Shown here: piece by piece, positions 13,596-42,800 of the stretch | How the letters are laid out: every line of letters begins with the position of its first letter | Position numbering within the stretch: position 1 is the stretch's first letter | DNA from: Tricharina praecox | Lineage: Eukaryota | Reading direction: 5' to 3' | Length of the DNA: 64,000 nucleotides | NCBI RefSeq assembly: GCF_024521635.1 | Contig: NW_026250427.1 | Location: 310,001 to 374,000 of the forward strand | Notes under the pieces: generated by a model | Database searches by the model: none | Told to the model about the DNA's origin: nothing | The model's input: the letters and a program-made list of their open reading frames with translations, nothing else | Translations under genes and position numbers: made by a program

Positions 13596-14258
13596 ATGAT
13601 GGAGTTTGCACCGAGACCCTTTGTTCGCCCGCCGTCATCGTCTGCAACCTCGTTTCACCCCCTCCACATCCTACGTCCGTCATCGGCTACATCTACCGCT
13701 CCTCCTCCTCCTCCTCCAGCCCTCCCTATACCTCGTCCGTCAACCTCCTTTGGCCAACTCTCGGACTACAGATTACGCTCGGATATACGGATAGTGGAGG
13801 ATACCTCGAACCGGAAACCTGAGCAGGCGCGGTTCTGGGATAATTCGACCGCCCGACGACCATCGCGCCCCTACAGCATTAGCCCACCGCAACCGCCGTC
13901 CTCTTCCTCCCGACAACAGTCTTCGAATTTTAGATCGCAACCGGAAACCAGGCAACAAGCAGTGAAGGAGGAGGAGGTGCTGGTGGACGTGCTGGAGGAG
14001 GAGAAGAGGTCAACCCGGAAGCAGCAGCTGGACGACTTCTGGAAGAATTCACTCACACGACTACCCAGCCCGCCGACGAGACGCGCTAGCTACAGCAGCG
14101 CTGGTCCACAGCCGGTACCGACAAGACGTCGCAACTCCAGTTGTCGCATGGGTGCAACCATGACTGTTCCTCCGACAATCAACAATACCAAAGGCGCGAT
14201 GGCGGACTTTGCTGCGCAGGTACGAACCACCCCCCGCCCTAAATTCAGCGCCTGCGTT

Positions 14259-14293
<35 letters not shown>

Positions 14294-15826
14294 CCCCCCT
14301 GTTGACGATGTATCTCGTCCGCAGATTACTTGTCTGTTCTGGTTCGAATCGACGGGTGCGATACACAGGATAGCGGAACTGAAAACACCCCTGGACCCTT
14401 CGTCGATTCAGCCCATTGCCCGTCACGCCGTTCCGGAGATTGGTTTCCGCAAATGGGTCGCGACGGTACTATCGACAACCCAGGTGTCGCAGAACGTCAT
14501 CCTACTGGCGCTGCTTTTCGTGTATAGATTGAAGAAACTCAATCCGAGCGTGCAGGGAAAGCCGGGCAGCGAATTCCGGTTGTTCACGGTGGCCTTGATG
14601 TTGGGAAACAAATGTGCGTGCCGGAGGGGAGGAGGAGGGAGAGATATCCCTGGCGGATGTGTGATATCCTGTGGCTGACTCACGGAACAGATCTTGACGA
14701 TAACACCTACACCAACAAGACCTGGGCAGAGGTCTCGGGAATCACTGTCGGGGATATTCACGTCATGGAGGTCGAGTTTCTGAGCAACATGCGCTACGGC
14801 TTGTATGTCGGGGATCAGGAGTGGAAGGATTGGCATACGAATCTGGGGAAGTACTGGGATTACTGGGATAAGGCTTCGAGACTACCGCTGGCGTCCCCAC
14901 CGCAACCCCAACCGATGTCGCCCACCTCCAATGGTGGATCCCCCGCTTTCGCCCACCTCCATGCCCCGCCGCCGCCGCTGCAGCCGACCGCTATTGCTGG
15001 GCACCAGCTCTTCCTCCCCGCCCCAGTCGCGCTGGATCCTCCGCACGTTCCGTCGATCTCGATGCCCATCCCGGACTTTGACTCGTTCTCCAGGAAACGC
15101 TCCATCGACTATGCGAGCGTCATGCAGCCACCGTCGAAGAGGGTGACCAGATCGCAGGTTCCGAAGTTGTCGGTGAACGTGCCGCAGTTTCCCGTCTCGG
15201 TGCCGACCACGATGCCTCCCGGGAGTGCGCCGCCACGGCTACAGCCGTTGGATTACCAACTGCCGCTGCCGTCGAATCGGGGGGCTCCTCCGCGAACGAT
15301 GGACACTCACCCCGTCCAGCTACAGCAACATCCCCTTCAAATACAGCAACAGCAGCAGCACCACTCGATACAGCTACCCCAACAGCAACAACAACAGCAG
15401 CAGCAGCAGCAGCATCCCCAACTCCCATTGCCTTCCGCCCGGCCGATGCCAGTCGTGTCCCACTCGAGCCCATCCGCTTCGGGTCCCCCGGTCCATTTCG
15501 ATTTCTCACCCTACAGCGCTCGACAGACATCGCCTTATTCGGCCCAGCACTCGGTCGCGTCGTCCCCCATCACGCCGAATTTCAGTTCTCAGCGGTCGCC
15601 GACTTGTTGGATCCTTGGGAACCGCCATTCGCCCTACCGGCCAGTGCGCACCGTCAACACTTTGCTCGTTCCTCCACATCTGGAGGCGCCCCAACAGATT
15701 GGCTACGATCAGATGCACTACCAGCCACTGGCCAAAGTGAGATCGGAGTACAAGACGGGTGTTGTTCCTTACATGCAGCCCGAAGTTTCCTGGAACCATT
15801 CTTGGTCCGACAACAACCACTACTGA
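13596..15826 (+). CDS. CLG1: Cyclin-like protein, Clg1/Pcl (Pho85-cyclin)/mug80 family
   Basis: Exons 13596-14219, 14325-14613, 14691-15826; introns GTACGA..GCAG (14220-14324) and GTGCGT..GCTGAC..ACAG (14614-14690). The spliced protein has the cyclin box ADFAAQ|ITCLFWFE..FRKWVATVLSTTQVSQNVILLALLFVYRLKKLNP..GSEFRLFTVALMLGNKY|LDDNTYTNKTWAEVSGI, followed by a Pro/Gln-rich tail. The start is taken as the first in-frame ATG. Confidence 0.88.
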
Positions 15827-17644
15827 GGTCATCACTACCGGAAACGGTCAACTATACTACCCTACGAAGGATGAGATCACTAGACTCCGGGGGAGAGGGG
15901 GGGTTATGTCAAGAAACAGCCGGAGATTGCAATTACTGTTGAAACATCCTTTTTTATTATTCTCGTTCCGAGCTCTACTTTTTTTTTCCTTCTTCGATTA
16001 CAGGGATTATCCGGGGTTTTGTTGGGTGGTATACTCTGAGGGTGTCAGCCTCCCTCCCTCCCCACCTCTCATTCGATTATTCTTGAATGTACTATTAGCT
16101 TTTTTCTTTTCTTCTCTCTTCTCTTTTTTTTCCCTTTCTTTTCTTTTCTTTGTTTTGGGGGCGGGTGGCGGCGGTGGTTATCTTGCTTTGGACTGCTACA
16201 TGAAGGTTTGTGTGCATCGGACTGGCGTTCTGTTTGTTGGGGATTTTTACTGTGTTTGTTACCTTTCTCTTTGTTGTGCGTGTGATAACTGGGAAGGGAT
16301 GGGGTATGGTGGGGGGAAAATGGAGGGGGGATTACCAATGGAGGGGCGGAAGATGGGAGGGAGGGGGGATGAGGGGTGATGGGGGGGGGGGGGGGCGCAC
16401 AAGCATACGTTACCTATTTTACCGCCTGTCAGGAGGCAGTCTTTTTTTCTCTCGAAGGGATGGAATGGAAGATTATCGTCTAGGGAGCGAGGGAGGGACA
16501 CGATGGCATGGCTGGCTTTGATGGGCTGGTCGCAAGATGGCCGGTCGCAAGGTCGCAAGGTCGCAAGTCTGTCTGGCCTGTCCTGCCCTGTCCTAGGTTA
16601 TCGAACCTGCTCTACTCTTCTCTGTGATACTCTTTGCTTCGGTGTGATTTGCCTCTATGCCAATGTGATTTGCCTCTATGCTTTATGTGCTCGTAGGGAG
16701 GTAGGAGGTAGGAAGGTATGCGTACGGTATGCGTGCGGCTGGTTTCGAAGTTGCACTGAGGTCTGAACTCTGGCGACCAGTGACCACTGAGGTCGCGAAT
16801 AATGACTACATACCTGGTACTCTACATGCTTCCGAACGGCGAACGGCGAGCACGCGCAAACGCTAGCAGAGCAGCTGCCAGGTCGAAGCCACGAAGGATG
16901 ATGGATGATGGTATGTAGAGTATGTAGAGTAGGAAGCATGTAGAGTATGTAGAGTATGTAGCCGGCAGCCGAGCCGAGCAGGCGGACGGACGACCGCGAT
17001 GTCACAGTGAGCTCTCGTGATTCGCGACGGCTAAGGACCAGCTATCGAACACGGCGGTACATAGGCGGGCGGAGCGGGAATACTGGTTGAGAACACGTGC
17101 AGACTGAGGAAATGCGCGGAAATGTGCGGAAATGCGAGGAACGTTAGATCATGGGTGGTCATGGGTGGTCACTGGGAGAGCGAGTGATAATTAGGAAGCC
17201 CAAGTACTGCTCACGGTATGTAGAGTAAAGTAGATAGTACGAACTGGAAATTAAAATCCTACTATGTACTCTAGTATGAGGTATGTAGTATCTACCCTCC
17301 GATGACGAGCGGGCTCATCCGCGGGTTCACAGCGCGCAATCGCACAATCAGTCAATTAGGGGATAAGAGGTGGCTGTCCCATCCCATCCCATCCCGCATC
17401 CGCTCCTGAACGGTCATTGAAAGCCGTGGCTGCCACGCGATTGTATGATACTGACTCGCCTTTGCCGCTTGGGCTACTATCACCACTTAGGTATCACTAC
17501 TACATGGTGTGGTACATAGAGTGGTATTTTTCTCTCGAGAGATAGAGAGAGAGAGGGGGGGGGGGGGGGGGGGGGGGGGGGAGAGCGAGGAATGTCCACG
17601 AAGTCGGATGGGTAGTTGGTATGAATACATAACATAACATAGCA

Positions 17645-18010
17645 TTAACTTGAGTCTTGAGTCTTGAGTCTTGAGAACAGCCGTACATAAGTACCTACAA
17701 CATCGCCAGACAGACAGCCAGCCGGCCCTAATCTTGGCCAATCATGTATTTGTCCCACATATATATCTGTAGGCTCTAGCTAAAGCAGAACGAGAGAAGC
17801 AGACAGACCAAGTAGACTGGCCGGACGTATTGCTAAAACCATGCGGCGTATCATACCTATGTTCTGGAGGGAGGGAGGGTAATTAGTGAGTGAGTGAGAA
17901 CGGTGAGAGCCTGTTTTGTTGTTTAATCATCATCGAGAACGGTGAGAGTGAGAGGGAGAATAGCGAGGGAGAATAGCGAAGAAGAACGGGTTCGCTCGGA
18001 ATCAGGATGC
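17645..18010 (+). repeat. Dispersed repeat module, inverted homolog of 40530-40850
   Basis: Shared strings GTCTTGAGAACAGCCGTACA, ATCTTGGCCAATCATGTATTTGT, GTTCTGGAGGGAGGG and GAGAGGGAGAATAGCGAG are found reverse-complemented at ~40650-40835. Confidence 0.8.
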
Positions 18011-18886
18011 AGAGCTCGAATGAGTACCTACCAACTGAATACCGGGCACCGCCTTACCGGCCAGTAATAAGTATCTCCAAAGGACGAAGAACCGCCCTTC
18101 CCAATGCCCGCCGCAATGCCCGCTGCGGCAGCGCGGCAGTGCGGCAGGCTGGTGCCGCTGCAAAGTAATAAACCCCAGACCCGGGCATGCAGTCGCACCA
18201 TTTCAAAACCTGCCTCGAAATGCGAATGGAAAAACCAGCCAGCAGGAAACACTGCGAGCAGTGGGCAGTGGGCACAGGTCGGGAAGCAGACAAGGAGTGC
18301 CCAGGGGGTAAGGATCGATTCGAGATCCGCGAGCGCTTCGCAGACGAGCGGTGCAGCGAGGGGTGCAGTCAGCCTTCGAGACATCCGAGCCGAGACTTCT
18401 TTTCGTCTACTAGGTGCTGCGGTGGGCACTGGGTAGGCGGATCCCTAGGGCCTAGAGGCTGGTGGGGAAGATGCAGCAAGTGAGGTGAGGTGTCGGAGTG
18501 GGAACTGGGGAAGCTGGGGGAGCTGGGGGAGCTGGGGGAGCTGGGGGGAGCTGGGGGAGCGGGGGGAGCGGGGGGAGAGGAAGGTGCTGCGAGCGTTCGG
18601 CGGCCCGAGAAGGAGGGTGAGGAGGAGGAGGAGATTTCCGAGGGAGGCGACAGCGTGGATTAGGGACTCGCGGAGGGGGGAGGGGGCGGACGACTCACGA
18701 GCCCGGGGAGCGGACGGGGGGTTTCCCCCAGTGTTATTTCTTTGGTGCGCTCCATCTGAATTTCGAGTCGGGCAGTGGCGTGAAAACGGGGGGGGGGGGG
18801 GGGTGTATGGGTTGATATTGCCATGCTCTACATATGTGGGTCACATGCAATTAATGAACAAACCAGAAACAAAACAGGCGGCAGGA

Positions 18887-19365
18887 CGCTTCAGTGGGGG
18901 GAGAGGGTTGAGCGGAGAGCAATAGGGAACCGGTATCGAGCTCATTGCTTCCGAGAGTTCTGGAGATGCAGCTACTCGAAAGGAGCCATCCAAGCACCAG
19001 GCTTTCTTCGCCCTCTCGCATAGCAGCCAGAGAAGCAATGAAAAAAAAGGGGGATCCAGTCAGAACATCTGCAGCTGAGCGCCCAGACCCCAATTCCAAA
19101 AAAGTAAGCAAACAATACCTGACCAACACACAGGGATATTCTCATCCCCAATCGACCCGCTGCGAATCAGTGAATCGCAGAGGAATCGAAATGAGCGATG
19201 ACCTGATATGTGTGTTGACCTGGTATATTCGCCGATGATGATGAGGAAGAGAAAGGAGAGAGGGGGGGAGGGGAGGGAGGGTTTTATAGGTTCTTGAAAT
19301 CGAGATTTCGCCGCTGCATGGTCGGTCACTCGGCATGTTAGCCTAAGAACTCGCGTCACAGGCGG
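18887..19365 (-). ncRNA. Structured cassette copy 1 (candidate ncRNA or non-autonomous element)
   Basis: TATAAAA 19288-19282, long hairpin 19232-19108, ACTTTTTTGGA 19105-19095, second hairpin 19091-19049, T8 tract. Homologous to the copies at 20.1, 39.7 and 40.1 kb. Transcription is unproven. Confidence 0.4.
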
Positions 19366-19780
19366 CAACACGCGCCAGTGGTTGTTGTGCGGGTAGGGCT
19401 GGGAATATATCTGGAGGATGGTGCTGAGGTCGGGCCCGCTCCCGCTGTTCCTTCCTACACCTTCTTTCGTGGCATCTCCTGTGGAAGAGGCAGGAGGCGA
19501 GGCGGCCAAGGAGCGGAATGTTCTTTCCTGGCTTTGTTTCTTTGGTGTGCTCATATATCGTCGGGATAAGCTACGGCGCGGGTAGGGAAGCCGCACCGGG
19601 CCGCTCGGTGAAAGTCTGGTTCGAAAGTGGCGTGGAAACGGGGGGGCGTACGGGTAGACATTGCTCTTATCTAGACAGTTTGCACGCAATCAATGATTGA
19701 ACAAAAAACAGCCGCTGAGAGAGAGAGAGAGAGATCTTCAGATTATTTCGCGTGCAGCCTATCTAGACTATGGCGAACCG
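19366..19780 (+). repeat. Repeat modules shared with 40190-40480 (direct), 18705-18880 (direct) and 40578-40650 (inverted)
   Basis: CCTTCTTTCGTGGCATCTCCTGT..GAAGAGGCAGGAGGCGAGGCGG..TTTCTTTGGTGYGCTCATATATCGTCGGGATA occurs at both loci. GAGAGATCTTCAG..TGCAGCCTATC..TAGACTATGGC is inverted at 40.6 kb. Confidence 0.8.
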
Positions 19781-20049
19781 TCGCCCTCCTTTCCTGCTCA
19801 CTCTGGCCGGCCGGGGGTCGATACCCTGCTACCAGCCAGCACGATGTGGTGCTGCTGCCCGCCAAACAAATAACATAGAAAATCGCACCAAGAACATATC
19901 ACTGGTGACTGCATATCCCCATTTCTTGCTTCCTCGCACCGGCCGCAGACACAGTACCCTGCTAGACACTCTTATTCTGCCCTTGATGCGATGCTTGCCT
20001 CCTCTTCATCATCCTCCTCCTGTTAGCTAGTGCGAAGTTAGGGCTAGCT

Positions 20050-20524
20050 TCACACTTAGATCTAGCGGTATCGAGTGACATATTACGCGTCAGCAAAATT
20101 TTGATTGCAAGAACCCCACCAACACCTATAAAAGCCTCCCTCCCCTCCCCCACTCTCTCCTTTCTCCCCATCATCATCGGTGAACATATCAGGTCAACGC
20201 ACACATCAGGTCATCGCTCATTTCGATTCCTCTGCGATTCACTGATTCGCAGCGGGTCGATTGGGGATGAGAGTATCTCTGTGTTGGTCTGGTACTGTTT
20301 ACTTACTTTTTGGAACTGGGGTCTGGCGCTCAGCTGCAGATGTTCTGACTGGATCCCCTTTTTTGCATTGCTTTTCTGGCTGCTATGCGAGAGGGCGAAG
20401 AATGCCTGGTGCTTTGATGGCTACTTTCGAGCACCTAGCTGTATCTCTACAACTCGCGGAAGAAATGAGCTCTATACCGGTTCCCTATTGCTCTCCGCTC
20501 AACCCTCTCCTCCCACTGAAGCGT
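20050..20524 (+). ncRNA. Structured cassette copy 2 (inverted relative to copy 1)
   Basis: TATAAAA 20127-20133, TCATCATC 20171-20178, hairpin 20180-20302, ACTTTTTGGA 20305-20314, hairpin 20318-20358, T6 20359-20364. Confidence 0.4.
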
Positions 20525-23500
20525 GTTTCCAGGTCGATTATGAACGAGAATAAGGAGCGCGAACAAAACGCCCAACGTGTGAGACGTGAGCTACCCCGCA
20601 GCGGCGGCGGCAGAACAAGCATGAAAGCAAGCCATTGATGAACACACACGGCAGCTTCCGTAGCTTCTACCTGTAGCTGCGTGGGAGCCTTTGGTAGAAT
20701 ACCTAGTATTGGTCGCTACTATATAGAGGGCGGCGGATCCGGTGCTCGAATGCGTTTGCCCGCTGCGAACCCGCCCATGAGCTGGATACCGTACCTAAGT
20801 CGACGATCTTGGAAGTTCACCAACCAGAAGGCAACTTTCATATGATATATCCAACAAGCTGTAGCGGCGACGGTATGCGGGATTCAGTATGCCCAGATGA
20901 GTACCTACACTTACCTTTCATAGCGCGCTTCCCTACTATTCTGCTGTGCTATTCTTCTAGGAAGGTCCCCCGTTATGCTTGCCAGACATTACTTCCTTTC
21001 CTGCTGAAGAACTCTTGATATACTACCTAGATAAAGCCCTCGTCTTTTCGGAACTGACTCACAGCTCGCCGCAACGAGATTCCCAACACTAGGAATGTGA
21101 GGATGTTTTGGTTCACGTATGTAGTCCAAAATCTCAATACAGCAGTCTCTGTTCGCCTTTACGCACCGCCGAGCCGCCGAACCGCAATCAACAGAACTAT
21201 CAGAACTAGCCGCGAGATTTGTCGAGTGAGCGAACATGATGAATCGGGGGTGCGGGCGACGTGCTCAACCGAAAGTGCTGGGACAGTTTATAGAGGCAAC
21301 ATCATCTTGACGGATTACCTCCGAGTCCCGATTTTCACCGATTTTCCGTTTTTTCGCATTATGTAGGTAGTCATTCCGGGACCGGAGGGTTCCATGAGCG
21401 GGTTCCATGAGCGAATACGTAGATTATCTATATCTCCCGAGCAAACATCCAGGCGCTTGCTCACCGCACTACACTGCACTGCACGTACATAGGCTTGCCG
21501 CGCCGATGCGTACAGCGCGGGTATGTACCCCCATAGCTACCATATGATATATCTCTACGAAAATCATCATCTCGACCTCACCCGCCCGTCGCCTTCTGTT
21601 TTAACTCTCCCCTCATGTGGTTCTAACTTCTCACCGAGACGAGACGAGACGAGACCGAGCAGCCGCGCCGACCGACATCACGCATCGCACCGTCCATCGC
21701 ATAGTCCATCGCGATCACCGCGCAGAGTACCTAGGTAGGTACCGGTACATAATGTATAGGGTACCTACTAACATAAGTACCTACCCTGTAGCCCCTTCGG
21801 AAGTTGGTTGATCCATCCCCGACCCTGGGGGGTTGACGATGTCAGGGCAGGGCAGGGCAGGGCAGGGCAGGGCAGGGGGTCAACTACATACTTACTTAAT
21901 TAGAAGTTAGGCGTCGCATATCGGCGAGCGGGAGATGAGCGTACTATCCGTGGCCATGCTATGCTATGCTATGCTATCCGTAGCTATGCGGTACGGACGG
22001 TACGGACGGAGCGGCGGCGGCGGCGTTCAGGCTTCAGGCGGATCCCGTCATCCCCATGTGAGTCGTGACTGGCGACTGCCTGCCTGTCTGCCTGGCTGGT
22101 ATATACCTAGGCGACCGACGGCTTCCAGAAGCTCGGGTGCGGCAGATAGATACCTACCTAGAGAGTGGGTGGGCTCGAGGCGGTGGGTGGGTGTGTACAG
22201 TGTGGGATGTGGGATGTGTGATTTAGGATGACGACGCCGGGATCTCCGGGTGGATATGAGGGATGTATGGAGGGATGAAGGATGGAGGGATGGCTGTATG
22301 GAGGGATGGAGGAGTGTAGGGTGGAGGTTCTCGGGTTCGCTTTCGCCAAAGTCAGAGTCAGAGCATGGGTCCCTCCCCGTCCTCATCCTCCTCCCAGCGC
22401 CGACGCCGATGCCTGCATCGAGTATAGTATACGGTACCTAGTACAGAGGCTCGACAGTGGACAGTGGACGTTCGTCAAACCGTGGTGCCGCAACGCCCGG
22501 TAACTCCCCCTTCCTCTCCTCCCCCCGCGCGCCAGCGTTACATAAGTACCGGTACCTAGGAGGAAGAAGGGAAAGATGCACTTCACGAAGCGCCAGAAGT
22601 GCCAAGTGGGCCCCGTCCCCGTACTAACTATCGCTAGGTATATCTACAGCTAACTGTAGGCTGTAACCACCCTTCGCATTATATACCAAGTAATAATCAT
22701 TAAATCACAGCCCGACTGTCCAACACTCGGACTGTCCGACAATCCGACGCATTGGATCCGCTCAAAACCTCAAACCGCTGTATAACGCCCAGCCAATACT
22801 CCCCTAGAGTAGTTGACCACGTCATCCCGATTCGCACATGTCACGGGGTGCTCGGCGGGCACTGTAACAGTCTATGTATGTAGAGTACGAGCAACTTTCC
22901 CTCAGCCAGCACCTCCACCACCACCGCCGCCTCCACCTCCACCTCCACCTCCACCAGCGCCGCCATCGCCGCCGTGAACTCGCCGGCGCCCTGTGGAGAT
23001 TATATATGCGAAATGTATGCAGCGATGCAGCGGTGCAGCGAGTGACACGCCATGCCATGCCATGCCCATCCGCGTGCGCCATGCGCCGTGCGACGTGCAA
23101 CGTGCGTGCGTGCGTGTGAAGCCTGATTCACTTCGCAGTCGCGGACTCGCGGAGTCGCGGAGTCGCGGCGTGCATGATTGGTTGGCGCCACCACCACAGT
23201 ACCACCGCCGCCGCCGCCCAGCGCCGTGTCACGAGTGCAGATCTGAAAATAAACTGCCACTGGTGAGCGGCGTGCATGGCGCATGCGCATCATGGGCCAT
23301 GGCATGGCATGTCGTGACTTTACTTCACTTCGGTGCTGAGTGCTGAGTGCTGAGTGAACTGTGGCTTCACCCCTTCGCTCCTTCGCTCCCCCACCCCTTC
23401 ATTCGTTGCAGTAGAGCACATTGTACCTACATGGGCGAACTCGAACCTTACCGTCCGAGTATGTAGCCCAGCCCAGCCTGCTCAGCCCAGCCCGTACGTT

Positions 23501-30200: not shown

Positions 30201-30915
30201 CAGCGGGCTTTGCCGTCTTGCCGTCCTTACATATCTACGGTGCATAGGCAGGTATGATTCTGCTGCTGGAGCGGGAGCTACCGTACTCCTATGTACCAAG
30301 CTGCCGAATGAGCCCGCTATTACTAGTAACTACAGTAGTACCGGTAGTACCCTCCAAACCGCCCACGTGCTCGGACCATCGTCGACATCGACATCGACGT
30401 CGACGCCGACGACTGGATAGGTATCGGGTGACGGGACGGACGCTGGACGGAATAAAGGCCCATGGAAGGCACGTCAGATTCTGACTCTGACTCTCTTGCA
30501 GTGCGGATTCTACCTTTGGACTCTGGAGCGGGGCGGGCGGGTGAGGGTGAGGGTGAGGGTGGTCTGTGGTAGGTATATGTACCTGGACGCATGCAGGATA
30601 TTAGGATATCAGGGTATCAGTATTCAGAGTCGGAGTCGGAATCGGAGTCGGACTTGAGGAGGGGGCATGAGGATCTAAATCTACGCACTGCACTGTAAGT
30701 AAAGTGCTGTACTGCACCCCACGCACATCTGTTCTCTGGATCCCCCACCGGAAGATTGTTATTTTAGAAAAGGAGGAGGGAAAAAGGGGTCCCTCATCAC
30801 AAGCCCACTGTTGACTAAGCCGGCCGGCGACGTCCGCGTCTATCTTGTTTACATACGCGGATCGAGAGGTGCACGTTCGACGAAGAAGGTCGACTTCCTC
30901 ATGGACGTTTCCGCG

Positions 30916-31219
30916 CTGCTGGGTCGGCTTCCAGTCGGACTGATTGAGTGTACTCTACGTTAAGTGGGTGGGTATTGGTACCCGCCTTTCCGTCCATCCC
31001 CCTCCCCACTGTGGATGGAAACTTGGTCTTTTTGCCCCCTCATCCCAAGAACATCATTGGATTTCTTGCTTCTTGGTCGGCTTCTTGGTCGGCTTCCAGA
31101 CGGACCGATTGTGCATCAAGTGGGCGGGTATTGGTACCGGCCCTTCCATCCATCCCCCAACACTGTTGTCAGAAACCTGGTCCTTTTGCCTCTCCCCGAG
31201 ATCATCACTGGATTCCTTC
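30916..31219 (+). repeat. Diverged tandem duplication, period ~165 bp
   Basis: GGTCGGCTTCCAG..AAGTGGGYGGGTATTGGTACC..TCCATCCCC..GAAACYTGGTCYTTTTGCC..ATCAYTGGATT occurs twice. Confidence 0.85.
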
Positions 31220-32406: not shown

Positions 32407-32453
<47 letters not shown>

Positions 32454-35400
32454 ATGGGGGGCAATAATCGCGATTCCAACATCAATGTCAACATCAATGC
32501 CGTCTTCCGAAAATCCGAAGTCTGAAGTCCGATGTCCGATGTCCGCGGGAGTACCTGTCTATGTATGTACTTTACGGTAGACACGTACAGTGCAGTGCAG
32601 GACAGTACCTGTATCGGTACCGGTATATAATAATGTAAGAAAGAGCACACCAACACCAGCTGAGTGTCTGGGTGTCATATATATATATAGCGAGGGCTTG
32701 CATTCGCTAGATAAATAGCCACGGCAAGGGACACGGCAACGGCAGCGGACACCGGCAAAGCCAGACCGGACCGGACGGAGCCCTGGGAGATCGAAGCTCT
32801 ACTCCTATGTAAAGCATATTTATGTCTGTATGTACTCACCTCTGTATGTAATACGGTATGTACTCTACTCTATGTCCACTCACAATGGTATTAGTTGTGC
32901 TGAGACCCCACTCACCCACTGTCCAGTATCATACATAATCAAGGTGGTATGATACGATTATTGCAGCACATCGTTGCATTATTTCTCTCCCGAGATCCCC
33001 AAGGCTGACCCCGCCCCCCCTCGCCCTCGCCCCTCGCCCCTCGCCCCCATGTTTTTCTTCTGTTTTTTGTTTTTTTGTGGACGCATCGTCATCGGATAGT
33101 ACTCGCGGATCCGGAAGGGGTGGGGATAGGGGGCAGTGGGTTTCAGAAATTGACGGCGCCGGCCAATCATGCGGGCCCCATGGCCCTTGCAGTTGCACTG
33201 TTGATCCATAATCCGTTGCCCCATAGTTAACATTTGTCCAGCAGCAGCAGAAGAAGAGAAGTAGATGGATGCTAGTAGGGCATGGTGCAGCCCCGAATAT
33301 ATCATATGTACCAGCTGCAACTGCGGAAAAGGACAAAAGGGAATGGAAAGGAAAGGAAAGGAAAAGGATTTCTCGCTGGTGATCAGAGTATGTGGAGTGC
33401 CCACCTGGGTGTGAGGCATGAGGTATGCTACAGGCGTCCATGTATCCATCTACACAGGTACTCAAAGATACCCATCTACATATCGTATCCACGTACATAC
33501 GGTACTTCCTACATACATCCATACAGTACCGGGCCGCTACCGCAACGTGTGCCGACCCCGTGTCTCGTCTCAACCGCGCCACGAGTGGCCGCTGGTCAAC
33601 GACGCCAGCTTTCGTCTCAACTCTCGATCCGTTGCTTCACGCTTCGTTGCTTCACGCCTCGTGCTTCACACTTCACCGGGGAGGGGGGGTGAGCAACGCG
33701 TTGTTTTGAAACCTCACGGTAAGCAGCTGCGATGCGACGCGGGGGGCCTGCTTCGACGCGCGGGGAGGGGGGTGGTGGTCAATCGGTCGGTCAGGGACGG
33801 AGACTCGAGAGAGAGCAGGCAGGCAATACGGTATACTACTATATCTACTGTATATACTGTATATACTAGTAAATAGAGTACTATCTGTCTGGGTGTGTAT
33901 AGTAGAAGTAGAGTAGAGTACGGTAGAGTATGGTACCTGAATTCGACGAGCAACTAATTCAACGAGTAACCAAGTACCTAGGCTACCTACCAGGCGGTTT
34001 GCGTACCCGTACCGTACCGTATGTCACGGGCAGTACAGACAGACAGTAGTTACATACGTGTGACACGCTATCACAAGCGACCGTCGTCTCCTCCCCCTCG
34101 TTTCATCGTCTCATGACGCCTCCGGAACTGTGCCACTCGCCGCCGGGCGCCCAGACGTCTCTCTCCGGTCGCTGGTTGGTTGGCGGTCGCCAGAGAGTGA
34201 GTGAGTGGGACATGTCCGAGCCACATTCCGTCTTGCGGGAGAGCGCACATGCCCGAGCGCCGGTGTGTGTGTTCACTGTTCAGCATGCACCGGCCGGAGG
34301 GATCGAGACGAGAGAGAACTAAAACGATGCTCCGTGCCTGCTTGCTTACTTGCCTGCCTGCTTGCTGGGGAAACGGGATTCCTTGCATTCACAACTACCC
34401 GGTCGGTACAGGGCACGGCCGGAGCGCTACTACAGGGCCACACATAGGTAATCATCACGAAAACCACCACCGCCGCCGCCTTCTTCCATGCCATGCCTGC
34501 CCTGGGAACCCTCCATATGCAATACTATATATATTGCTGCCGCTGCCGGAGAGTCGAGTCGACAAGACAAGACAAGACAAGACATATCCGGTGCCGACAT
34601 GTTTTTCCAGTTGGTCGGTTTTTTCTCTCTCATTCTTTCCCCCCGACCCCGGCTGTACATCGGTAGCCATGGTAGAGTAGAGTAGAGTGGGTAGAGTAGA
34701 GTGATCAAAGTCGCCCGGGTTTGCCTGTCCACACCGTACACCGCACCGCACGTTCACGGTTCCACTGGACCCAGTCCCTCACCCCTCCCCCCCTTTCCGA
34801 CAATCCGCGCCATCAACAGGCATCAGCTGGAATGCTCGGCTCCAGAGTGTCGGCGGGTCGCAAGTATGTACTGTAGAGTACAGCTCACACTCCCCGTCTC
34901 TCCCCCCTTCCGCCGTACCGTATGGGAAGGCGCAGTCGACGTACTCTACGTCGGGGGAAGAGTCCTTTGCTCTAGCATCTGCCATCTGGTCCGGGTAGTT
35001 TTGATTCGACTCAGGAGGAGGAGGGCCGGGGGGAGGCGGCGCATTGGAGTTCCCGATTGACGTTTTGCCGATGCGATGAGTTGATTCGGCGCGCTCGAAG
35101 ATTCCCGAGTTTCGTGTTGCCTGACGGATGGAATGTCCGGCCAATCCAGTCGACGGTCCTGTCTTGGGAGGGAGGGGGCACATCGATGCGCGGCGAAGGT
35201 GGGCAGCTGAGAATCGGATCGGATCGATCTTGTGCAGCCGTAGAATAGTACTGGATAACTTCCATAGTACATAGTACCTGTGAACTGCGGCGGTCTGGTG
35301 CCTGAAAGTCAACATGTACCGGTTCAGAGGCCTTCGGAGGCCTTCTGTCGTACGAAATGTCATCAGGAACGTAAGAACATAGGAATGAGACAATATTGAG

Positions 35401-35640: not shown

Positions 35641-35864
35641 GACTTGTTCTGCGGAGCCGAGGAAATATATTGTGGAGCGGAAGGCGGTGTCTGTCTCGGT
35701 TTCGAGAGGTCGGGTTTCGCTTGATTGTTGCGAGCTGCAGTTCACTCCACTCACGACTTCGAATTAGACTTGTTCTGCCGAGTCGATGAAATATATTGTG
35801 AATGGCGGTCTCGGTCTCAAGAGGTCGGGTTTCGCTTGGTTGTTGCAAGCTGCAGTTGAATCCA
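35641..35864 (+). repeat. Diverged tandem duplication, period ~127 bp
   Basis: GACTTGTTCTGC..GAAATATATTGTG..GAGGTCGGGTTTCGCTTGRTTGTTGCRAGCTGCAGTT at 35641 and 35768. Confidence 0.85.
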
Positions 35865-36806: not shown

Positions 36807-38683
<1,877 letters not shown>

Positions 38684-39459: not shown

Positions 39460-40527
39460 TGCAATCTGTTATGACGCCCGACGCTCGACGACTCGCTTTT
39501 GTTCTTTTTTATTTGATTCATTGATTGCATGCGACCTACATCTTATCTAGATCCTGGCAATATCTACCTGTATTAACCCTCCGCTTCCCCGCCACTATTC
39601 AACCCAAATCCGCCTGTGACGCTAGTGCTTAGGGTTAACAAGCCGAGTGACCGTCCATACAGCGAAATCTCGATTTCAAGAACCCCCACCTATGAAAGCC
39701 TCCCTCCCCTCCCCCCCTCTCTCCTTTATCCTCCTCATCATCATCGGCGAACATACTAGGTGAACACACTGATCAGGTCATCGCTCGTTTCGATTCCTCT
39801 GCGATTCAGTGATTCGCAGCGGGTCGATTGGGGATGAGAGTATCTCTATGTGTTGGTCTGGTACTGTTTGCTTACTTTTTGGAACTGGGGTCTGGGCGCT
39901 CAGCTGCAGATGTTCTGACTGGATCCCCCTCTTTTTTCATTGCTTCTCTGGCTACTATGCGAGAGGGCGAGGAAAATTGCTTGGGTGGCTCCTATCGAAT
40001 AGCTGTCTCTCTAGAACTCATGGATGCAATGGCGAATCAGTGAGCCGCAGAAGAATCGAAACGAGCGATGAGAAAGGAGAGAGTGGGGGAGGGGGGGTGG
40101 CTTTTATAGGTGTTGATGGGGTTCTTGATTTCGCAGAATCATAGCCGGTCACTCGACACCGCTAGCCCTAAGCAGTAGCTTCACAGGCGGCGACACACGC
40201 CAGTGGGTGTTGAGCGGGTAGGGCTGGGCGGAGAGGGGGGAGGGTGCTGAGGTTGAGAAGCCGAGATCACTCCCCCTATTCCTCCCCACGCCTTCTTTCG
40301 TGGCATCTCCTGTTGAAGAGGCAGGAGGCGAGGCGGGGTGAGGAGCGGATTGTTCTTTCCTGGCTTTATTTCTTTGGTGCGCTCATATATCGTCGGGATA
40401 GGCCACGGCGCGGAGTGCACGGGTAGAAGATATTGTCATGGTCTAGATAGGTCGCATGCAATCAATGAATGAACAAGAAAAAGAACAAAAGCGAGTCGTC
40501 GGGAATCGGGCATCATAACAGATTGCA
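39460..40527. mobile_element. ~1.07 kb foldback/MITE-like element containing cassette copy 3 (+, 39610-40030) and truncated copy 4 (-, 40032-40192)
   Basis: Imperfect terminal inverted repeats of ~110 bp: TGCAATCTGTTATGACGCCCG..GACTCGCTTTTGTTCTTTT..CATTGATTGCATGCGACCTA at 39460, and its reverse complement ending 40527. Internal arms are also inverted. No transposase ORF and no clear target-site duplication. Confidence 0.55.
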
Positions 40528-42800
40528 ATTGGCATCCTCGCTGAGTCGCTCACCGTTCTCGCTCGCCATTCTCCCTACTGGTTTGCCATAGTCTAGAATC
40601 TTGATAGGCTGCATACGAAATAAACTGAAGATCTCTCTGACTCTCTCTCACTCGCTATTCTCCCTCTCGCTCTGATCGTTCTCATTCACTGCCCTCCCTC
40701 CAGAACAGAGGTACGCCACATGATTTTTGTGATAGGTACGAATGGAAAGTCTGCTCACTTGTCTCGCTTGAGCACAAATACATGATTGGCCAAGATTATG
40801 GCTGTCTGGCGACGTTGTACGGCTGTTCTCAAGACTTGAGTTGATGTTACGTACTAGGTACGTTTCGTGGACATTACTCGCTCTCGGGAAAGACCTGCAT
40901 CCATAGGTCTGCTGCATACTACTATAAACGTGAGGACCGAATCCTGCACCGATTGTCAATCGAAAGTGGTGATACCTATGCCGAGGCGGCGTGTTGTGTT
41001 TATATACTGTAGTATAAACCCTCCTCCCCGAGCTCGTACATAGATGATAGTTAGATCTTTCTAATGACTGCTCAGATTCCGCCACCCGCAACCGCTCTTG
41101 CTCACAGATGCAGATGCTATGCGGCTTTCCCACCCCAGCTCTGGCGTTTTACTTGAAGTTGAATACAACGGGTGTTCTGGGTATCCTGTTCTTCGGGTGC
41201 TCATGGATGATGCGTAAGGTTCGGGAGGTTTTCAGTATCCTCTGCTCCTTCCAGGCTCTACTTCTCCGAACCATAAATTCTTCAGAGCCAAGTACGCATC
41301 CCACCTCCCACCTCGCACCCATCCCTCACCTGTCACCATTCAACTTTCAAGTTCCCACCCCTTCCCTCTCATCACCACTACTCCAATCTCCAATCCCCAA
41401 TCTCCAGCAGCCCCACCAACCACCAACCAGCAACAACCACCACCAACCACCAACAATCCCACGACCTCTCGTCTCGAGTCTCAAGTCTCGCATCCTAATT
41501 CCTTTTCCGTGCCCCACTGCATCTTCACCGGTTACGACTATCTGTCACATATATTCCAGGATCAGGTAAGTCCCTGCACACCGAGCCGTTCCGGAACGCA
41601 CCGAGATGTTCCGGAACGCACCGACTGCGACTGCGACTGCGACTACGTCTACGTACGGCCCTTTTAGGGTGCGTGGCTTGCGCACATTGTCGTCGTCGAT
41701 GGATCAACCCGCGGAGAGTTGGGCGACGGTGAACGGGGACCGGACTGTGTACAGTACCTACGGTATGGGACGGTACATAATAGCTTTTGGTTCCAACTTT
41801 CAACTTCATAACACTACCTACATTAGGTAGATAGGTATGACGTCCAAGCCGCAAGCGTTTGCAGCACGTGGACGGTGGTTTAGGTTTTGTTGGTACTATT
41901 TCATTCACATCCAATTCGAACCCACGAGTGACATCCCCACGACATCCCCATAGCTCCCATCGCCTCTTCCTCGTCTCTCCATCCCGCACCGGCAAGTATT
42001 CATATGATCTCAATCTATCATTCGATTCATCCTCATCTATTGGCGCCAAGTCGTCACAGTACAGCAGTACAAACATTAGTTCCCCCTTCCCCCCTCATCA
42101 CGGCCGCTGCAACACCACAAACCACAACTGAAATCTACAACTACATCCCCTCCCCTCCTCGGTCTCCATGAAAACACGGAAACACGGAAACACGGAAACA
42201 CGGAAACCAGTCCCTCAAGAAGGAAAGCAAGAAAAGAACGACAAGCAAGAAAAGAAAAAAGAATATTATCCCTCTCCCCTCCCGTCCCCATATCCCTAAT
42301 GGTATAGAAATGAAAGAAAGAAAGAAAAGAACGGCACAAAGAAACCCCCCATCCCCGGAGCAGAAAACTCGCGTTTGTACATGATTCCCATCATTCCAAC
42401 ATTAACCCCCACCTATCTTCCTCTCTCTCTGCCGCTATCAATTACTTCTATACGTACGAAAACGAACGAATGGAGGAACGAAAAAAAAACTGAAGAACAA
42501 AAAAAACAGTGGAATAATATTAACGCCCAGTCCATCCCCTATTTCCACATCATCCCATCCATCTCACACACACAGATGACAGGCAAGCAAGCAACCGCAC
42601 ACACACACATCGCACATCATCACACACACGCACACTGCAACCTGAACACCAATCCAACAGATTTGTAACGGGGTTTGGTCAAAAAAGACTGAAGAAAACG
42701 AAAACAAAAAACAAAAAACACCCCATCCCCAAAAAAAGACAGACGGAAAAAAGATCTCGTTTCCCCCAAAGTTTTGCCATGTACTCGTTCGCACTCAGCT

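Follow-up and report, generated by a model that had tools for sequence, protein, structure and literature searches.

Four copies of a repeat unit, three whole and one truncated, were found in the window (the whole 64,000-nucleotide stretch of DNA that was analysed), and comparison of their sequences indicates that they are probably a small, lineage-specific group of candidate non-coding transcription units in a Pezizales fungus. A copy is laid out as a TATA box, a CT block, a leader, an imperfect hairpin of 125-130 nt, a U-rich single-stranded linker, a stem-loop of 41-42 nt and a T run, and the conserved core from hairpin to T run measures ∼195-200 nt. Judging from the differences between copies, pairing within the hairpin is maintained on the sense strand only. 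The explanation that we tentatively favor is a hairpin RNA made by RNA polymerase II and specific to this lineage, which would probably act as a precursor of small RNAs.

Organization of the copies and their repeat units

An earlier sequence-only reading of this DNA had placed three near-complete copies at 19288->18940 (minus strand), 20127->20475 (plus) and 39691->40030 (plus), and all three were borne out by alignment (Table 1). Copy 2 (20124-20524) aligns with copy 1 (19291-18886) at 90.7% identity over 410 nt (E = 6e-154), and its segment 20091-20455 aligns with copy 3 (39660-40019) at 86.6% identity over 373 nt (E = 4e-111); on these alignments, homology among the copies is well above chance level. 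The TATAAAA motif (TATGAAA in copy 3), the CT tract and the leader CATCATCATCGG are present in each copy as had been described. The TATA box of copy 3 is mutated, yet its core is retained. An additional fourth copy (40127->40032, minus strand) is incomplete: TATAAAA and the CT tract are there, but the 5' arm of the hairpin is deleted and the sequence ends just past the apex, leaving a 40-nt apex fragment. The four copies occupy two intergenic regions with 20 kb between them, both gene-poor and rich in simple repeats, and are arranged as one divergent pair (copies 1 and 2, locus 1) and one convergent pair (copies 3 and 4, locus 2), the latter abutting tail to tail at 40031/40032.

Table 1. Positions of the repeat units and their parts in the window
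Feature	Position	Strand	Remark
Copy 1	18886..19291	-	alignment, motif reading, folding
Copy 1 TATAAAA	19288-19282	-	
Copy 1 CT tract	19281-19243	-	
Copy 1 leader CATCATCATCGG	to 19232	-	final GG is the hairpin opening
Copy 1 hairpin	19233-19104	-	
Copy 1 U-rich linker	19105-19092	-	T6 at 19103-19098
Copy 1 second stem-loop	19091-19050	-	
Copy 1 T8	19048-19041	-	
Copy 1 domain 3	19040-18940	-	tail continues to 18886
Copy 1 domain-3 end TCATTGCTTC	19041-19032	-	
Copy 1 domain-3 end GAAGCAATGA	18951-18942	-	
Copy 1 unit, upstream part	19292..19712	-	boundary motif 19645-19712
Partial second unit, head to tail with copy 1	18700..18875	-	direct reading
Spacer between copies 1 and 2	19568..20015	.	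inverted boundary motif 19735-19775, (GA)n run, high-copy stretch
Copy 2 (copy described in the sequence-only reading)	20001..20524	+	proximal upstream ∼20001-20126
Copy 2 TATAAAA	20127-20133	+	
Copy 2 CT tract	20134-20167	+	
Copy 2 leader CATCATCATCGG	20169-20180	+	final GG is the hairpin opening
Copy 2 hairpin	20179-20303	+	
Copy 2 upper-stem arms	about 20211-20240 and 20243-20270	+	
Copy 2 linker motif ACTTTTTGGA	20305-20314	+	
Copy 2 second stem-loop	20318-20358	+	
Copy 2 T6	20359-20364	+	
Copy 2 domain 3	20365-20475	+	tail continues to 20524
Copy 3	39565..40031	+	proximal upstream from ∼39565
Copy 3 boundary motif	39500-39570		counterpart of that of copy 4, in opposite orientation
Copy 3 TATGAAA	39691-39697	+	
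Copy 3 hairpin	39746-39873	+	
Copy 3 linker	39874-39886	+	
Copy 3 second stem-loop	39887-39928	+	
Copy 3 TCTTTTTT, in the place of the T run	39930-39937	+	
Copy 3 domain 3	ends abruptly at 40031	+	
Copy 4, truncated	40032..40127	-	TATAAAA 40108-40102 and CT tract intact
Copy 4 unit, upstream part	40128..40490	-	boundary motif 40420-40490

Each copy sits within a repeat unit of 0.55-0.85 kb, which exceeds the earlier description by about 100-350 bp 5' of the TATA box and by a 54-nt tail (to 18886 or 20524) and whose limits are marked by a ∼70-bp boundary motif. Four proximal upstream blocks, CTTAG, CGAGTGAC, GCRAAAT and CAAGAAC, are common to all four copies and persist in copy 2 although the rest of its upstream sequence is only 67% identical; a long upstream part of copy 1 is shared with copy 4 (19243-19581 versus 40063-40413, 80.5% identity). 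The unit is also repeated head to tail. The partial second unit that adjoins copy 1 consists of the boundary motif (18805-18875) and the beginning of the upstream region, four joints in contigs of run X1 lead from 19640-19645 back to 18800-18839, and one more was found in X2. Because duplication has taken in the promoter and upstream DNA along with the rest of the unit, and because units stand head to tail, the copies appear to have arisen by duplication at the DNA level and not by copying from a transcript. This pattern makes the RNA of a retroelement the least likely of the three readings offered previously, although an LTR-type element would likewise copy its promoter. The unit ends in ...GAAGCGT, without a TGG-type primer site after it. 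On direct reading the hairpin base has no target-site duplication, and the hairpin is internal to the unit, which argues against a MITE.

The sequence is non-coding, because indels of 1, 2 and 4 nt between the copies break every reading frame; the ATG frame of domain 3 meets a stop after 10 codons in copy 2 and after 15 in copy 3. A protein-coding reading was ruled out by these breaks together with the Pfam results: no family reached its cut-off in 80 open frames of at least 70 codons (12 at locus 1 and 68 elsewhere, covering both intergenic regions), and no transposon family was among the three weak matches. In a protein search with the open frame across copy 2, none of 392 candidates, restricted to lengths of 103-329 aa, scored. 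The Rfam search recommended in the sequence-only reading matched no known family at gathering score in the whole 64 kb. At E values up to 10, the segment 18700-20700 yielded no snRNA, SmY or SL RNA and four chance-level matches, topped by IRES_VEGF_A on the CT tract with 24 bits against a gathering score of 160. A tRNA or SINE origin was rejected, since ARAGORN predicted 0 genes in the window and the B-box-like motif present occurs at chance level (see below). H/ACA and C/D box snoRNA motifs were not found by eye. Probes of 22 nt from the apex and the tail gave 0 matches in metagenome contigs, and a 22-mer from the second stem-loop gave 0 matches in genome contigs and 0 in viral contigs.

Strand-specific pairing and uneven conservation

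The long rod-like hairpin that had been read from the sequence was confirmed by folding. Folded alone, the sense strand reaches -54 to -55 kcal/mol with z-scores of -6.4, -6.3 and -5.0, and 0 of 200 shuffles were as good in every whole copy; the antisense strand reaches -35 to -40 kcal/mol (z -3.5 to -4.1). The apical loop is of the CAC/CUG type and spans 3-7 nt. Over the 47 pairs of the hairpin, 98.6% of cells are paired, compared with 32-47% when the partners are slid. Intron-like signals (GTAYTG ... CAG, ∼44 nt) were also observed.

Several differences between the copies had been described as forming G.U pairs specific to the strand downstream of the TATA box, and the counts agree. Eleven distinct hairpin positions are G.U (six shared and five copy-specific) and none is A.C (two-sided binomial p = 0.001), a result obtained both from the RNA fold and from a fold-free alignment of one arm with the reverse complement of the other. 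Mutational strand bias was ruled out as the source of the G.U excess, as minority-state transitions outside the hairpin are unbiased (20 C>T plus A>G, 22 G>A plus T>C). Inside the hairpin of the intact copies, each G>A or T>C change lies at an unpaired position or is a compensating partner. The single covarying pair reported earlier, C-G to U-A in copy 2 (columns 3/125), is real and is the sole such pair; covariation above background was not found, as 168 of 500 shuffles do at least as well as this one pair (n = 3 informative sequences, all from one window). Seven uncompensated substitutions affect paired positions. Five of these stay paired as G.U (p ∼0.04 for at least five of seven pairs kept under neutral change), and two are true pair-breaking transversions, A.A in copy 1 and G.G in copy 3, consistent with the mismatches already noted.

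Conservation among the three whole copies is uneven along the unit. Variable columns number 3 of 65 in the apex, 1 of 15 in the linker and 0 of 41 in the second stem-loop, compared with 12 of 59 in the basal stem (4 of 29 in its 3' arm), 21 of 96 in domain 3 and 25 of 67 in the proximal upstream region. Apex, linker and second stem-loop together thus differ sharply from the flanks (4/121 versus 46/163, Fisher p = 9e-9), as does the core as a whole (p = 8e-7), and at the flank rate an unvarying second stem-loop has a probability of 1e-6. Conservation falls off at the TATA box on one side and at the T run on the other. Over the 40 positions of the apex fragment, truncated copy 4 carries 4 differences, whereas copies 1-3 differ mutually by 0 to 2. 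The conserved islands could also arise by gene conversion between copies.

Downstream of the hairpin, the unpaired linker, second hairpin and T tract of the sequence-only reading are all present as sequences. The linker ACTTTTT(T)GGA, whose T run is T6 in copy 1 and T5 in the other two whole copies, is unpaired in centroid structures. It is followed by the second stem-loop, GGGGTCTGG...CTGGATCCCC, after which copy 1 has T8, copy 2 has T6 and copy 3 has TCTTTTTT. The stem-loop (41-42 nt) has zero substitutions among the copies and one 1-nt indel in copy 2; its stability was not beyond that of shuffles (z -0.9, 34 of 200 as good), and it yields no pairing evidence because it never varies. The third domain fared less well: its closing sequences occur in copy 1 as read, but the pairing is unsupported, as 7 of 13 variable paired columns break it (of the rest, 4 keep it, 1 is mixed and 1 gapped). 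These breaks include the A.C type, in contrast to the hairpin. Taken together, the G.U/A.C asymmetry and the low variability of the upper stem, linker and second stem-loop point to constraint on a sense RNA, and we consider it likely that RNA structure is under selection.

Proposed transcription and competing explanations

If the favored hairpin RNA is made, RNA polymerase II would start in or just past the CT block, near the CATCATC leader (∼20168-20176 in copy 2, 19243-19234 in copy 1 and 39735-39745 in copy 3), and the transcript would fold into the long hairpin. Small RNAs would then be cut by a Dicer-type enzyme from the upper stem, 24 bp long and nearly invariant, in the manner of milRNA-like or hairpin-RNA loci, and the lower stem would serve as a structural platform that drifts by way of G.U and compensated changes. 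In filamentous fungi, strongly expressed genes usually have a core promoter made up of a TATA box and a CT block; here the two lie ∼50 nt 5' of the structured part. A stable stem-loop, as expected of a milRNA precursor, was found on the putative transcribed strand (0 of 200 shuffles as good). No small-RNA target-like matches to the core of at least 13 nt were found elsewhere in the window. A Dicer-substrate model does not predict that the linker and second stem-loop would be invariant.

That invariance would be better explained by a protein platform, as in a stable snRNA-like ribonucleoprotein RNA of ∼200-250 nt that extends from the CATCATC leader to the T run, carries an Sm/LSm-type ring on the U-rich site, binds a specific protein through its invariant 3' stem-loop and is encoded by multicopy genes in tandem or inverted units with conserved promoter-proximal blocks, an arrangement known from many snRNA and SL RNA genes. 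The order of parts, with a long stem-loop at the 5' end, a single-stranded U-rich site and another stem-loop at the 3' end, suits such an RNA, as do the position of the best-conserved parts (linker, 1/15; second stem-loop, 0/41), the end of conservation at the T run, the retention of the four upstream blocks in all four copies and the occurrence of units head to tail. We nevertheless regard it as improbable, given the lack of any snRNA, SmY or SL match in Rfam even at E values up to 10, the missing U5 loop 1, a C in place of the A that precedes the U run in the usual Sm consensus, the unexceptional stability of the second stem-loop (z -0.9), one truncated copy and one with a mutated TATA box, and the very low prior for a new lineage-specific Sm-class RNA. 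That the unit represents a new snRNA-like small nuclear or cytoplasmic RNA of one Pezizales lineage, forming a class beside spliceosomal snRNAs, SmY and SL RNAs, is quite improbable, and donation of the leader by trans-splicing from G|GUA in the 3' arm seems barely conceivable. Very unlikely, too, is a U6-type RNA polymerase III unit, in which TATA would direct a start in the CT tract and transcription would end at one of the two T runs: a stop at the T5-6 behind the long hairpin would yield a natural short-hairpin RNA, and the other candidate terminator is the T6-8 that follows the second stem-loop. Type-3 (U6-like) genes of polymerase III have an upstream TATA box and a T-run terminator, and those of fungi as a rule carry A and B boxes too, located internally or downstream. 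Here the two T runs are placed exactly past the two stem-loops, the conserved block spans TATA to the second T run, and each of the three whole copies has a B-box-like TTCGATTCC on its 5' arm, but that motif is at chance level (4 in the window versus 2.75 expected, the three in the copies being one motif by descent) and no A box of the usual consensus was seen on direct reading. The ∼40 nt past TATA moreover offer no purine as a start site in copies 1 and 3, and a single A in copy 2; a CT block of this kind marks polymerase II promoters in filamentous fungi, and ARAGORN detected nothing tRNA-like in the window.

Much of the genomic setting would suit repeat DNA without host function, satellite-like or transposon-derived, that multiplied through tandem, inverted and segmental duplications. 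In that case the hairpin would be an old inverted repeat, the promoter signals leftovers or the element's own, and the islands a product of gene conversion or master-copy descent. The unit carries its upstream DNA and boundary motifs with it, head to tail (18700-18875; the X1 and X2 joints), and is found among a patchwork of other repeats in which rearranged and truncated members occur, such as copy 4 and the junction 40031/40032, a setting typical of repeat DNA that is selfish or decaying. The intergenic DNA at both loci has few genes and many simple repeats, and covariation is non-significant. The DNA stretch was found in five sequencing runs, all of them sets of DNA contigs labelled as soil or air metagenomes and stemming from two studies, and in no RNA run. 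Neighboring pieces are high-copy in the runs: summed contig depth in the spacer rises to 1751 versus ∼7.5 on the unique flank, and of 347 run X1 contigs placed on a 1.9-kb stretch, 150 are <90% alike. Over the hairpin itself the summed depth in run X1 is ∼15-49, roughly that expected from the window's own copies, and no extra hairpin copies were demonstrated among the contig pieces of X1, X2, X3 and X5 listed over it, whose character states are those of copies 1 to 3. Against this explanation stands the 11:0 ratio of G.U to A.C with unbiased transitions elsewhere, which is unexpected for an inverted repeat evolving at the DNA level, and the more variable 3' basal arm (4/29) splits the islands, unlike a single conversion tract. 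Furthermore, the 80 frames gave no Pfam match at cut-off and three weak non-transposon matches, the hairpin base shows no target-site duplication, and an AT-rich RIP signature is absent (GC 0.49-0.62; transitions/transversions between copies 1 and 2 only ∼1.7). In Ascobolus, repeats are silenced (MIP). On balance, functionless repeat DNA is less likely than not, though nearly as probable as the favored small-RNA precursor.

Non-coding RNAs have hardly been explored in Pezizomycetes (truffles, morels and related soil fungi), and at this locus the sequence by itself bears the marks of selection on an RNA fold: strand-specific G.U pairs, unbiased mutation elsewhere, and islands bounded by a promoter and a T run. 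If the RNA is real, the family is an example of a repeat unit with its own promoter that holds a structured RNA gene, and a test case for separating host non-coding RNA genes from selfish repeats. If no RNA is made, it warns that long inverted repeats in repeat families can mimic non-coding RNA genes.

Comparison with known systems

The resemblance to U5 and SmY RNAs drawn in the sequence-only reading holds for the layout and goes no further. Like U5 and other Sm-class snRNAs, the unit has a long 5' stem-loop with internal loops, a U-rich single-stranded site, a 3' stem-loop, a TATA-type promoter and multiple copies. The Sm site consensus is R-A-U(3-6)-G-R, single-stranded between two stem-loops; the site here, A-C-U5/6-G-G-A, is likewise unpaired between stem-loops but has C where the consensus has A, and no Rfam model for these RNAs was matched. 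The invariant loop 1 of U5 (GCCUUUUAC), already reported absent, has 0 matches on either strand of the whole window, and the apical loop here is only 3-7 nt. SL and SmY RNA genes share with the unit an Sm-type site between stem-loops, an own promoter and multicopy, often tandem, units of ∼0.3-1.4 kb, and the first stem here also has, on its 3' arm, a G|GUA at the place of the SL RNA donor site. Unlike known leaders of 16-52 nt, however, the would-be leader exon is ∼115-120 nt and strongly folded, and neither SL nor SmY models in Rfam matched the units; none of the titles among the literature matches listed concerned a fungus. The unit is not a U5, SmY or SL RNA.

Hairpins derived from transposons, MITEs or others, can give rise to small RNAs. 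The family resembles MITE-derived hairpins as an inverted-repeat hairpin within a dispersed multicopy repeat, and differs from them in lacking a target-site duplication, in being internal to a larger unit, in its strand-specific imperfection and in an apparently low copy number. The milR loci of Neurospora are fungal microRNA-like loci. According to PMC9757828, fewer than half of published fungal hairpin-RNA loci meet basic standards, and well-supported milRNA hairpins are short and keep the arms of the duplex minimally apart. The whole hairpin here (125-130 nt) is longer than is typical of the well-supported loci (PMC9757828), but its upper stem with a loop of 3-7 nt fits that form. Unlike fungal milRNA loci, the unit includes a TATA and CT promoter of its own, has a second stem-loop that does not vary downstream of the hairpin and is organized as a tandem or inverted repeat, and it is known from DNA alone. 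With fungal milRNA and hairpin small-RNA loci it shares an intergenic imperfect hairpin with G.U pairs and bulges, a strongly conserved duplex, a small terminal loop and paralogous copies.

Repeat copies and their genomic setting

The motifs located by the sequence-only reading were all found in place, and a profile search of the window recovered exactly the three near-complete copies plus a fourth, truncated copy. Identity is 90.7% over 410 nt between copies 1 and 2, 86.6% over 373 nt between copies 2 and 3, and 88.1% over 430 nt between copies 1 and 3. Copies 1 and 2 form a divergent pair (locus 1); 20 kb away, copies 3 and 4 form a convergent pair and abut tail to tail. The intact TATAAAA and CT tract of copy 4 aim into copy 3; if this promoter were active, antisense RNA would be made across copy 3, and hence double-stranded RNA against the whole family.

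The ~100 nt before the TATA box are homologous in all four copies. Identity between copies 2 and 1 is as low as 67% there, yet the blocks CTTAG, CGAGTGAC, GCRAAAT and CAAGAAC are invariant. Copies 1 and 4 have another ~290 nt of upstream sequence in common (80.5% identity), and a 54-nt tail is common to copies 1 and 2 (96% identity). Because the boundary motif, with the first part of the upstream region, recurs to the left of copy 1, copy 1 and a partial second unit stand head to tail. Contigs from X1 and X2, two public DNA sets labelled soil or air metagenome, agree with this arrangement: among those on 18800-20700, four joints in X1 and one more in X2 lead back from 19640-19645 to 18800-18839. 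Since promoter and upstream DNA are duplicated along with the rest, and since units are arranged head to tail, the retroelement origin that had been offered as one option is unlikely.

X1 contributed 347 contigs on a 1.9-kb stretch (39 at least 99% alike, 40 at 95-99%, 118 at 90-95% and 150 below 90%). Summed contig depth, a rough measure in runs labelled metagenomes, was about 7.5 on the unique right flank, rose to 15-49 where the two hairpins lie and to 77-124 across copy 1's tail and most of its domain 3, and peaked at 1751 in the spacer between copies 1 and 2. Because depth differs so widely along the stretch, the neighbourhood is a patchwork of repeats whose copy numbers vary greatly, in which the hairpin part is low-copy, roughly matching the window's own copies. 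The spacer is a repeat with a much higher copy number in these runs, and many contigs carry identical variant letters.

The window comes from the nuclear genome of a filamentous ascomycete and has genes for a Tel1/ATM-type kinase, an ATP sulfurylase, a serine palmitoyltransferase-like enzyme and a homeobox protein. Top identity of the ATP sulfurylase frame to any protein in the collection is 92-94%. Its closest named proteins are from Pezizomycetes (Ascodesmis 92%, Wilcoxina 91%, then Choiromyces, Morchella, Tuber, Geopyxis and Pyronema), and for this reason the source organism is treated as a Pezizales fungus. Both copy pairs sit in gene-poor intergenic DNA with abundant simple repeats, and homopolymer runs, a minisatellite and local tandem duplications were also recorded. 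The outer flanks of the two loci share two short inverted pieces, so the two intergenic regions have more in common than the unit alone.

Coordinates of repeat copies and neighbouring features in the window
Feature	Position	Strand	Remarks
Copy 1, as aligned with copy 2	19291-18886	minus	
Copy 2, as aligned with copy 1	20124-20524	plus	
Copy 3, as aligned with copy 2	39660-40019	plus	
Copy 4	40127-40032	minus	TATAAAA and CT tract kept; hairpin 5' arm gone; stops after apex
Convergent pair, copies 3 and 4	39565-40530		junction 40031/40032
Boundary motif, ~70 bp	18805-18875; 19645-19712; 39500-39570; 40420-40490		39500-39570 in reverse orientation
Boundary motif, inverted version	19735-19775		
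Partial second unit	18700-18875		left of copy 1
Joints in X1 and X2 contigs	19640-19645 to 18800-18839		"go back"
Tail and most of copy 1 domain 3	18864-19055		
Spacer between copies 1 and 2	19568-20015		depth maximum at 19760-19823
ATP sulfurylase frame	37475-38683		
Homopolymer G or C runs	17555-17582; 18784-18805; 14258-14299; 32420-32454		up to about 28-35 nt; intergenic
Minisatellite, GGGGGAGCT type	18490-18580		adjoins partial unit
Inverted pieces in outer flanks	17717-17972; 40646-40810		37-38 nt; 89-92% identity
Tandem duplications	35641-35864; 30915-31218		period about 115-165 bp; 76-87% identity; intergenic

Hairpin strand asymmetry and uneven conservation

Folded alone, the hairpins of copies 1-3 reach -55.3, -54.4 and -54.2 kcal/mol (z -6.4, -6.3 and -5.0; 0/200 shuffles as good), whereas their reverse complements are less stable, at -35 to -40 kcal/mol (z -3.5 to -4.1). 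In the consensus, 47 pairs make up two helices: the lower stem has 23, the upper stem 24, and an internal loop measuring about 9 by 11 nt lies between them. Of the cells, 98.6% pair, as against 32-47% with partners slid. The sequence-only reading had noted that several differences among copies become G.U pairs on the strand downstream of the TATA box. The three copies together carry 11 distinct G.U positions, 6 of them shared and 5 copy-specific, and no A.C position. When the 5' arm was aligned with the reverse complement of the 3' arm, with no folding involved, the outcome was likewise 5-8 G.T or T.G mismatches per copy and no A.C or C.A. The 11:0 ratio has a two-sided p of 0.001 if transitions strike both strands equally; as a check on this assumption, minority-state transitions outside the hairpin comprised 20 C>T plus A>G and 22 G>A plus T>C. 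The G>A and T>C changes seen in the hairpins of intact copies are confined to unpaired positions, apart from one that compensates its partner in a double change. That double change, the only one, turns C-G into U-A in copy 2 and is a real compensatory pair, but with only three sequences covariation is not significant, 168 of 500 shuffles being as good, and it does not rise above phylogenetic background, the yardstick set by the sequence-only reading. Two transversions break pairs (A.A in copy 1, G.G in copy 3). The strand asymmetry is stronger evidence than covariation: the hairpin is real, with one strand favoured.

Variable columns among the three whole copies number 25/67 in the proximal upstream region (inflated by the divergent upstream of copy 2), 5/54 in TATA, CT tract and leader, 8/30 in the lower 5' arm, 3/65 in the apex, 4/29 in the lower 3' arm, 1/15 in the linker, 0/41 in the second stem-loop, 1/6 in the T run and 21/96 in domain 3. 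The core is less variable than the flanks (Fisher p 8e-7), and apex, linker and second stem-loop are less variable than the flanks (p 9e-9) and than the lower stem (p 4e-4), where sequence drifts and pairs are kept. Between copies 1 and 3 alone, 118/122 positions are identical in apex, linker and second stem-loop and 252/286 elsewhere. The apex of copy 4 differs at 4 of 40 positions, at which copies 1-3 differ mutually at 0-2. The conserved block is bounded by the TATA box and the T run. A transcribed structural RNA would be expected to show this overall profile. Gene conversion between copies could also have produced conserved islands; however, the more variable 3' basal arm interrupts them.

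The second stem-loop is clearly constrained in sequence, but its stability does not exceed that of shuffles (z -0.9), and its pairing is unproven because the copies are invariant there. The proposed third domain found no support: among 13 variable paired columns, four keep pairing, seven break it (two as A.C), one is mixed and one is a gap. The suggested Sm site, A-C-U5/6-G-G-A, is unpaired in centroid folds, but C replaces the A that adjoins the U run in the Sm consensus.

Coding capacity, known RNAs and relatives

A protein-coding reading was rejected, as the copies differ by indels of 1, 2 and 4 nt that throw every frame out of register; the sole ATG frame in domain 3 has 57 codons in copy 1, whereas copies 2 and 3 reach a stop after 10 and 15 codons. 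Pfam gave nothing above cut-offs for 12 frames of at least 60 codons at locus 1, or for 68 of 80 frames of at least 70 codons in both intergenic regions, and no transposon domain appeared; the other 12 overlap the locus 1 repeat and were covered by its scan. The Rfam comparison proposed earlier returned no match at gathering scores across the window (Rfam 15), and at E up to 10 the interval 18700-20700 gave four chance-level matches and no snRNA, SmY, SL RNA, ribozyme or convincing miRNA. As the sequence-only reading had it, U5 loop 1 is absent. The unit does not belong to U5, SmY or SL RNA, or to another Rfam family. ARAGORN found no tRNA-like gene in the window.

Searches with 22-mers found no relatives in metagenome_contigs (apex and tail), genome_contigs or viral_contigs (second stem-loop), and the open frame across copy 2 found none among 392 candidate proteins of 103-329 aa. 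Because these searches came back empty, the family is known only from the window and near-identical contigs in five runs of two studies.

Interpretation and comparison with known systems

The analysis shows the anatomy of the repeat, the strand-specific maintenance of its hairpin, its conserved islands and its absence of coding capacity. In filamentous fungi, strongly expressed polymerase II genes usually have a core promoter in which a TATA box precedes a CT block of ~35-40 nt. Because the repeat has this layout, transcription is predicted to begin within the CT block or right behind it, close to the CATCATC leader, and the transcript would open almost directly with the hairpin. A Dicer-type enzyme could then release small RNAs from the nearly invariant 24-bp upper stem, which bears a small loop, in the manner of milRNA-like or hairpin-RNA loci. 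We prefer this reading tentatively; it leaves the invariance of linker and second stem-loop unexplained. PMC9757828 describes well-supported fungal hairpins as short, with minimal distance between duplex arms, and regards overlap with repeats as ground for caution. Membership of the milRNA class is, from sequence, a candidate assignment only.

That the unit is a selfish or inert repeat agrees with its genomic context, and it may possibly belong to a described repeat family, but the G.U asymmetry does not fit and we consider this reading somewhat unlikely. A stable snRNA-like particle would explain the invariant linker and second stem-loop better than Dicer processing does; its low prior and the failed membership tests for every known Sm-class family make it improbable. 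Transcription by polymerase III as a U6-type unit ending at one of the two T runs, which at the first run would yield a natural short-hairpin RNA, seems very improbable: the CT tract offers no purine start site in copies 1 and 3, no A box was seen and the B-box-like motif is at chance level.

The features originally described are confirmed and somewhat strengthened. Their interpretation is supported in part. A lineage-specific structured ncRNA inside a repeat unit is credible but unproven. In mode of working, the closest system would be either a fungal hairpin small-RNA locus or a multicopy unit that carries the gene for a small Sm-class RNA.
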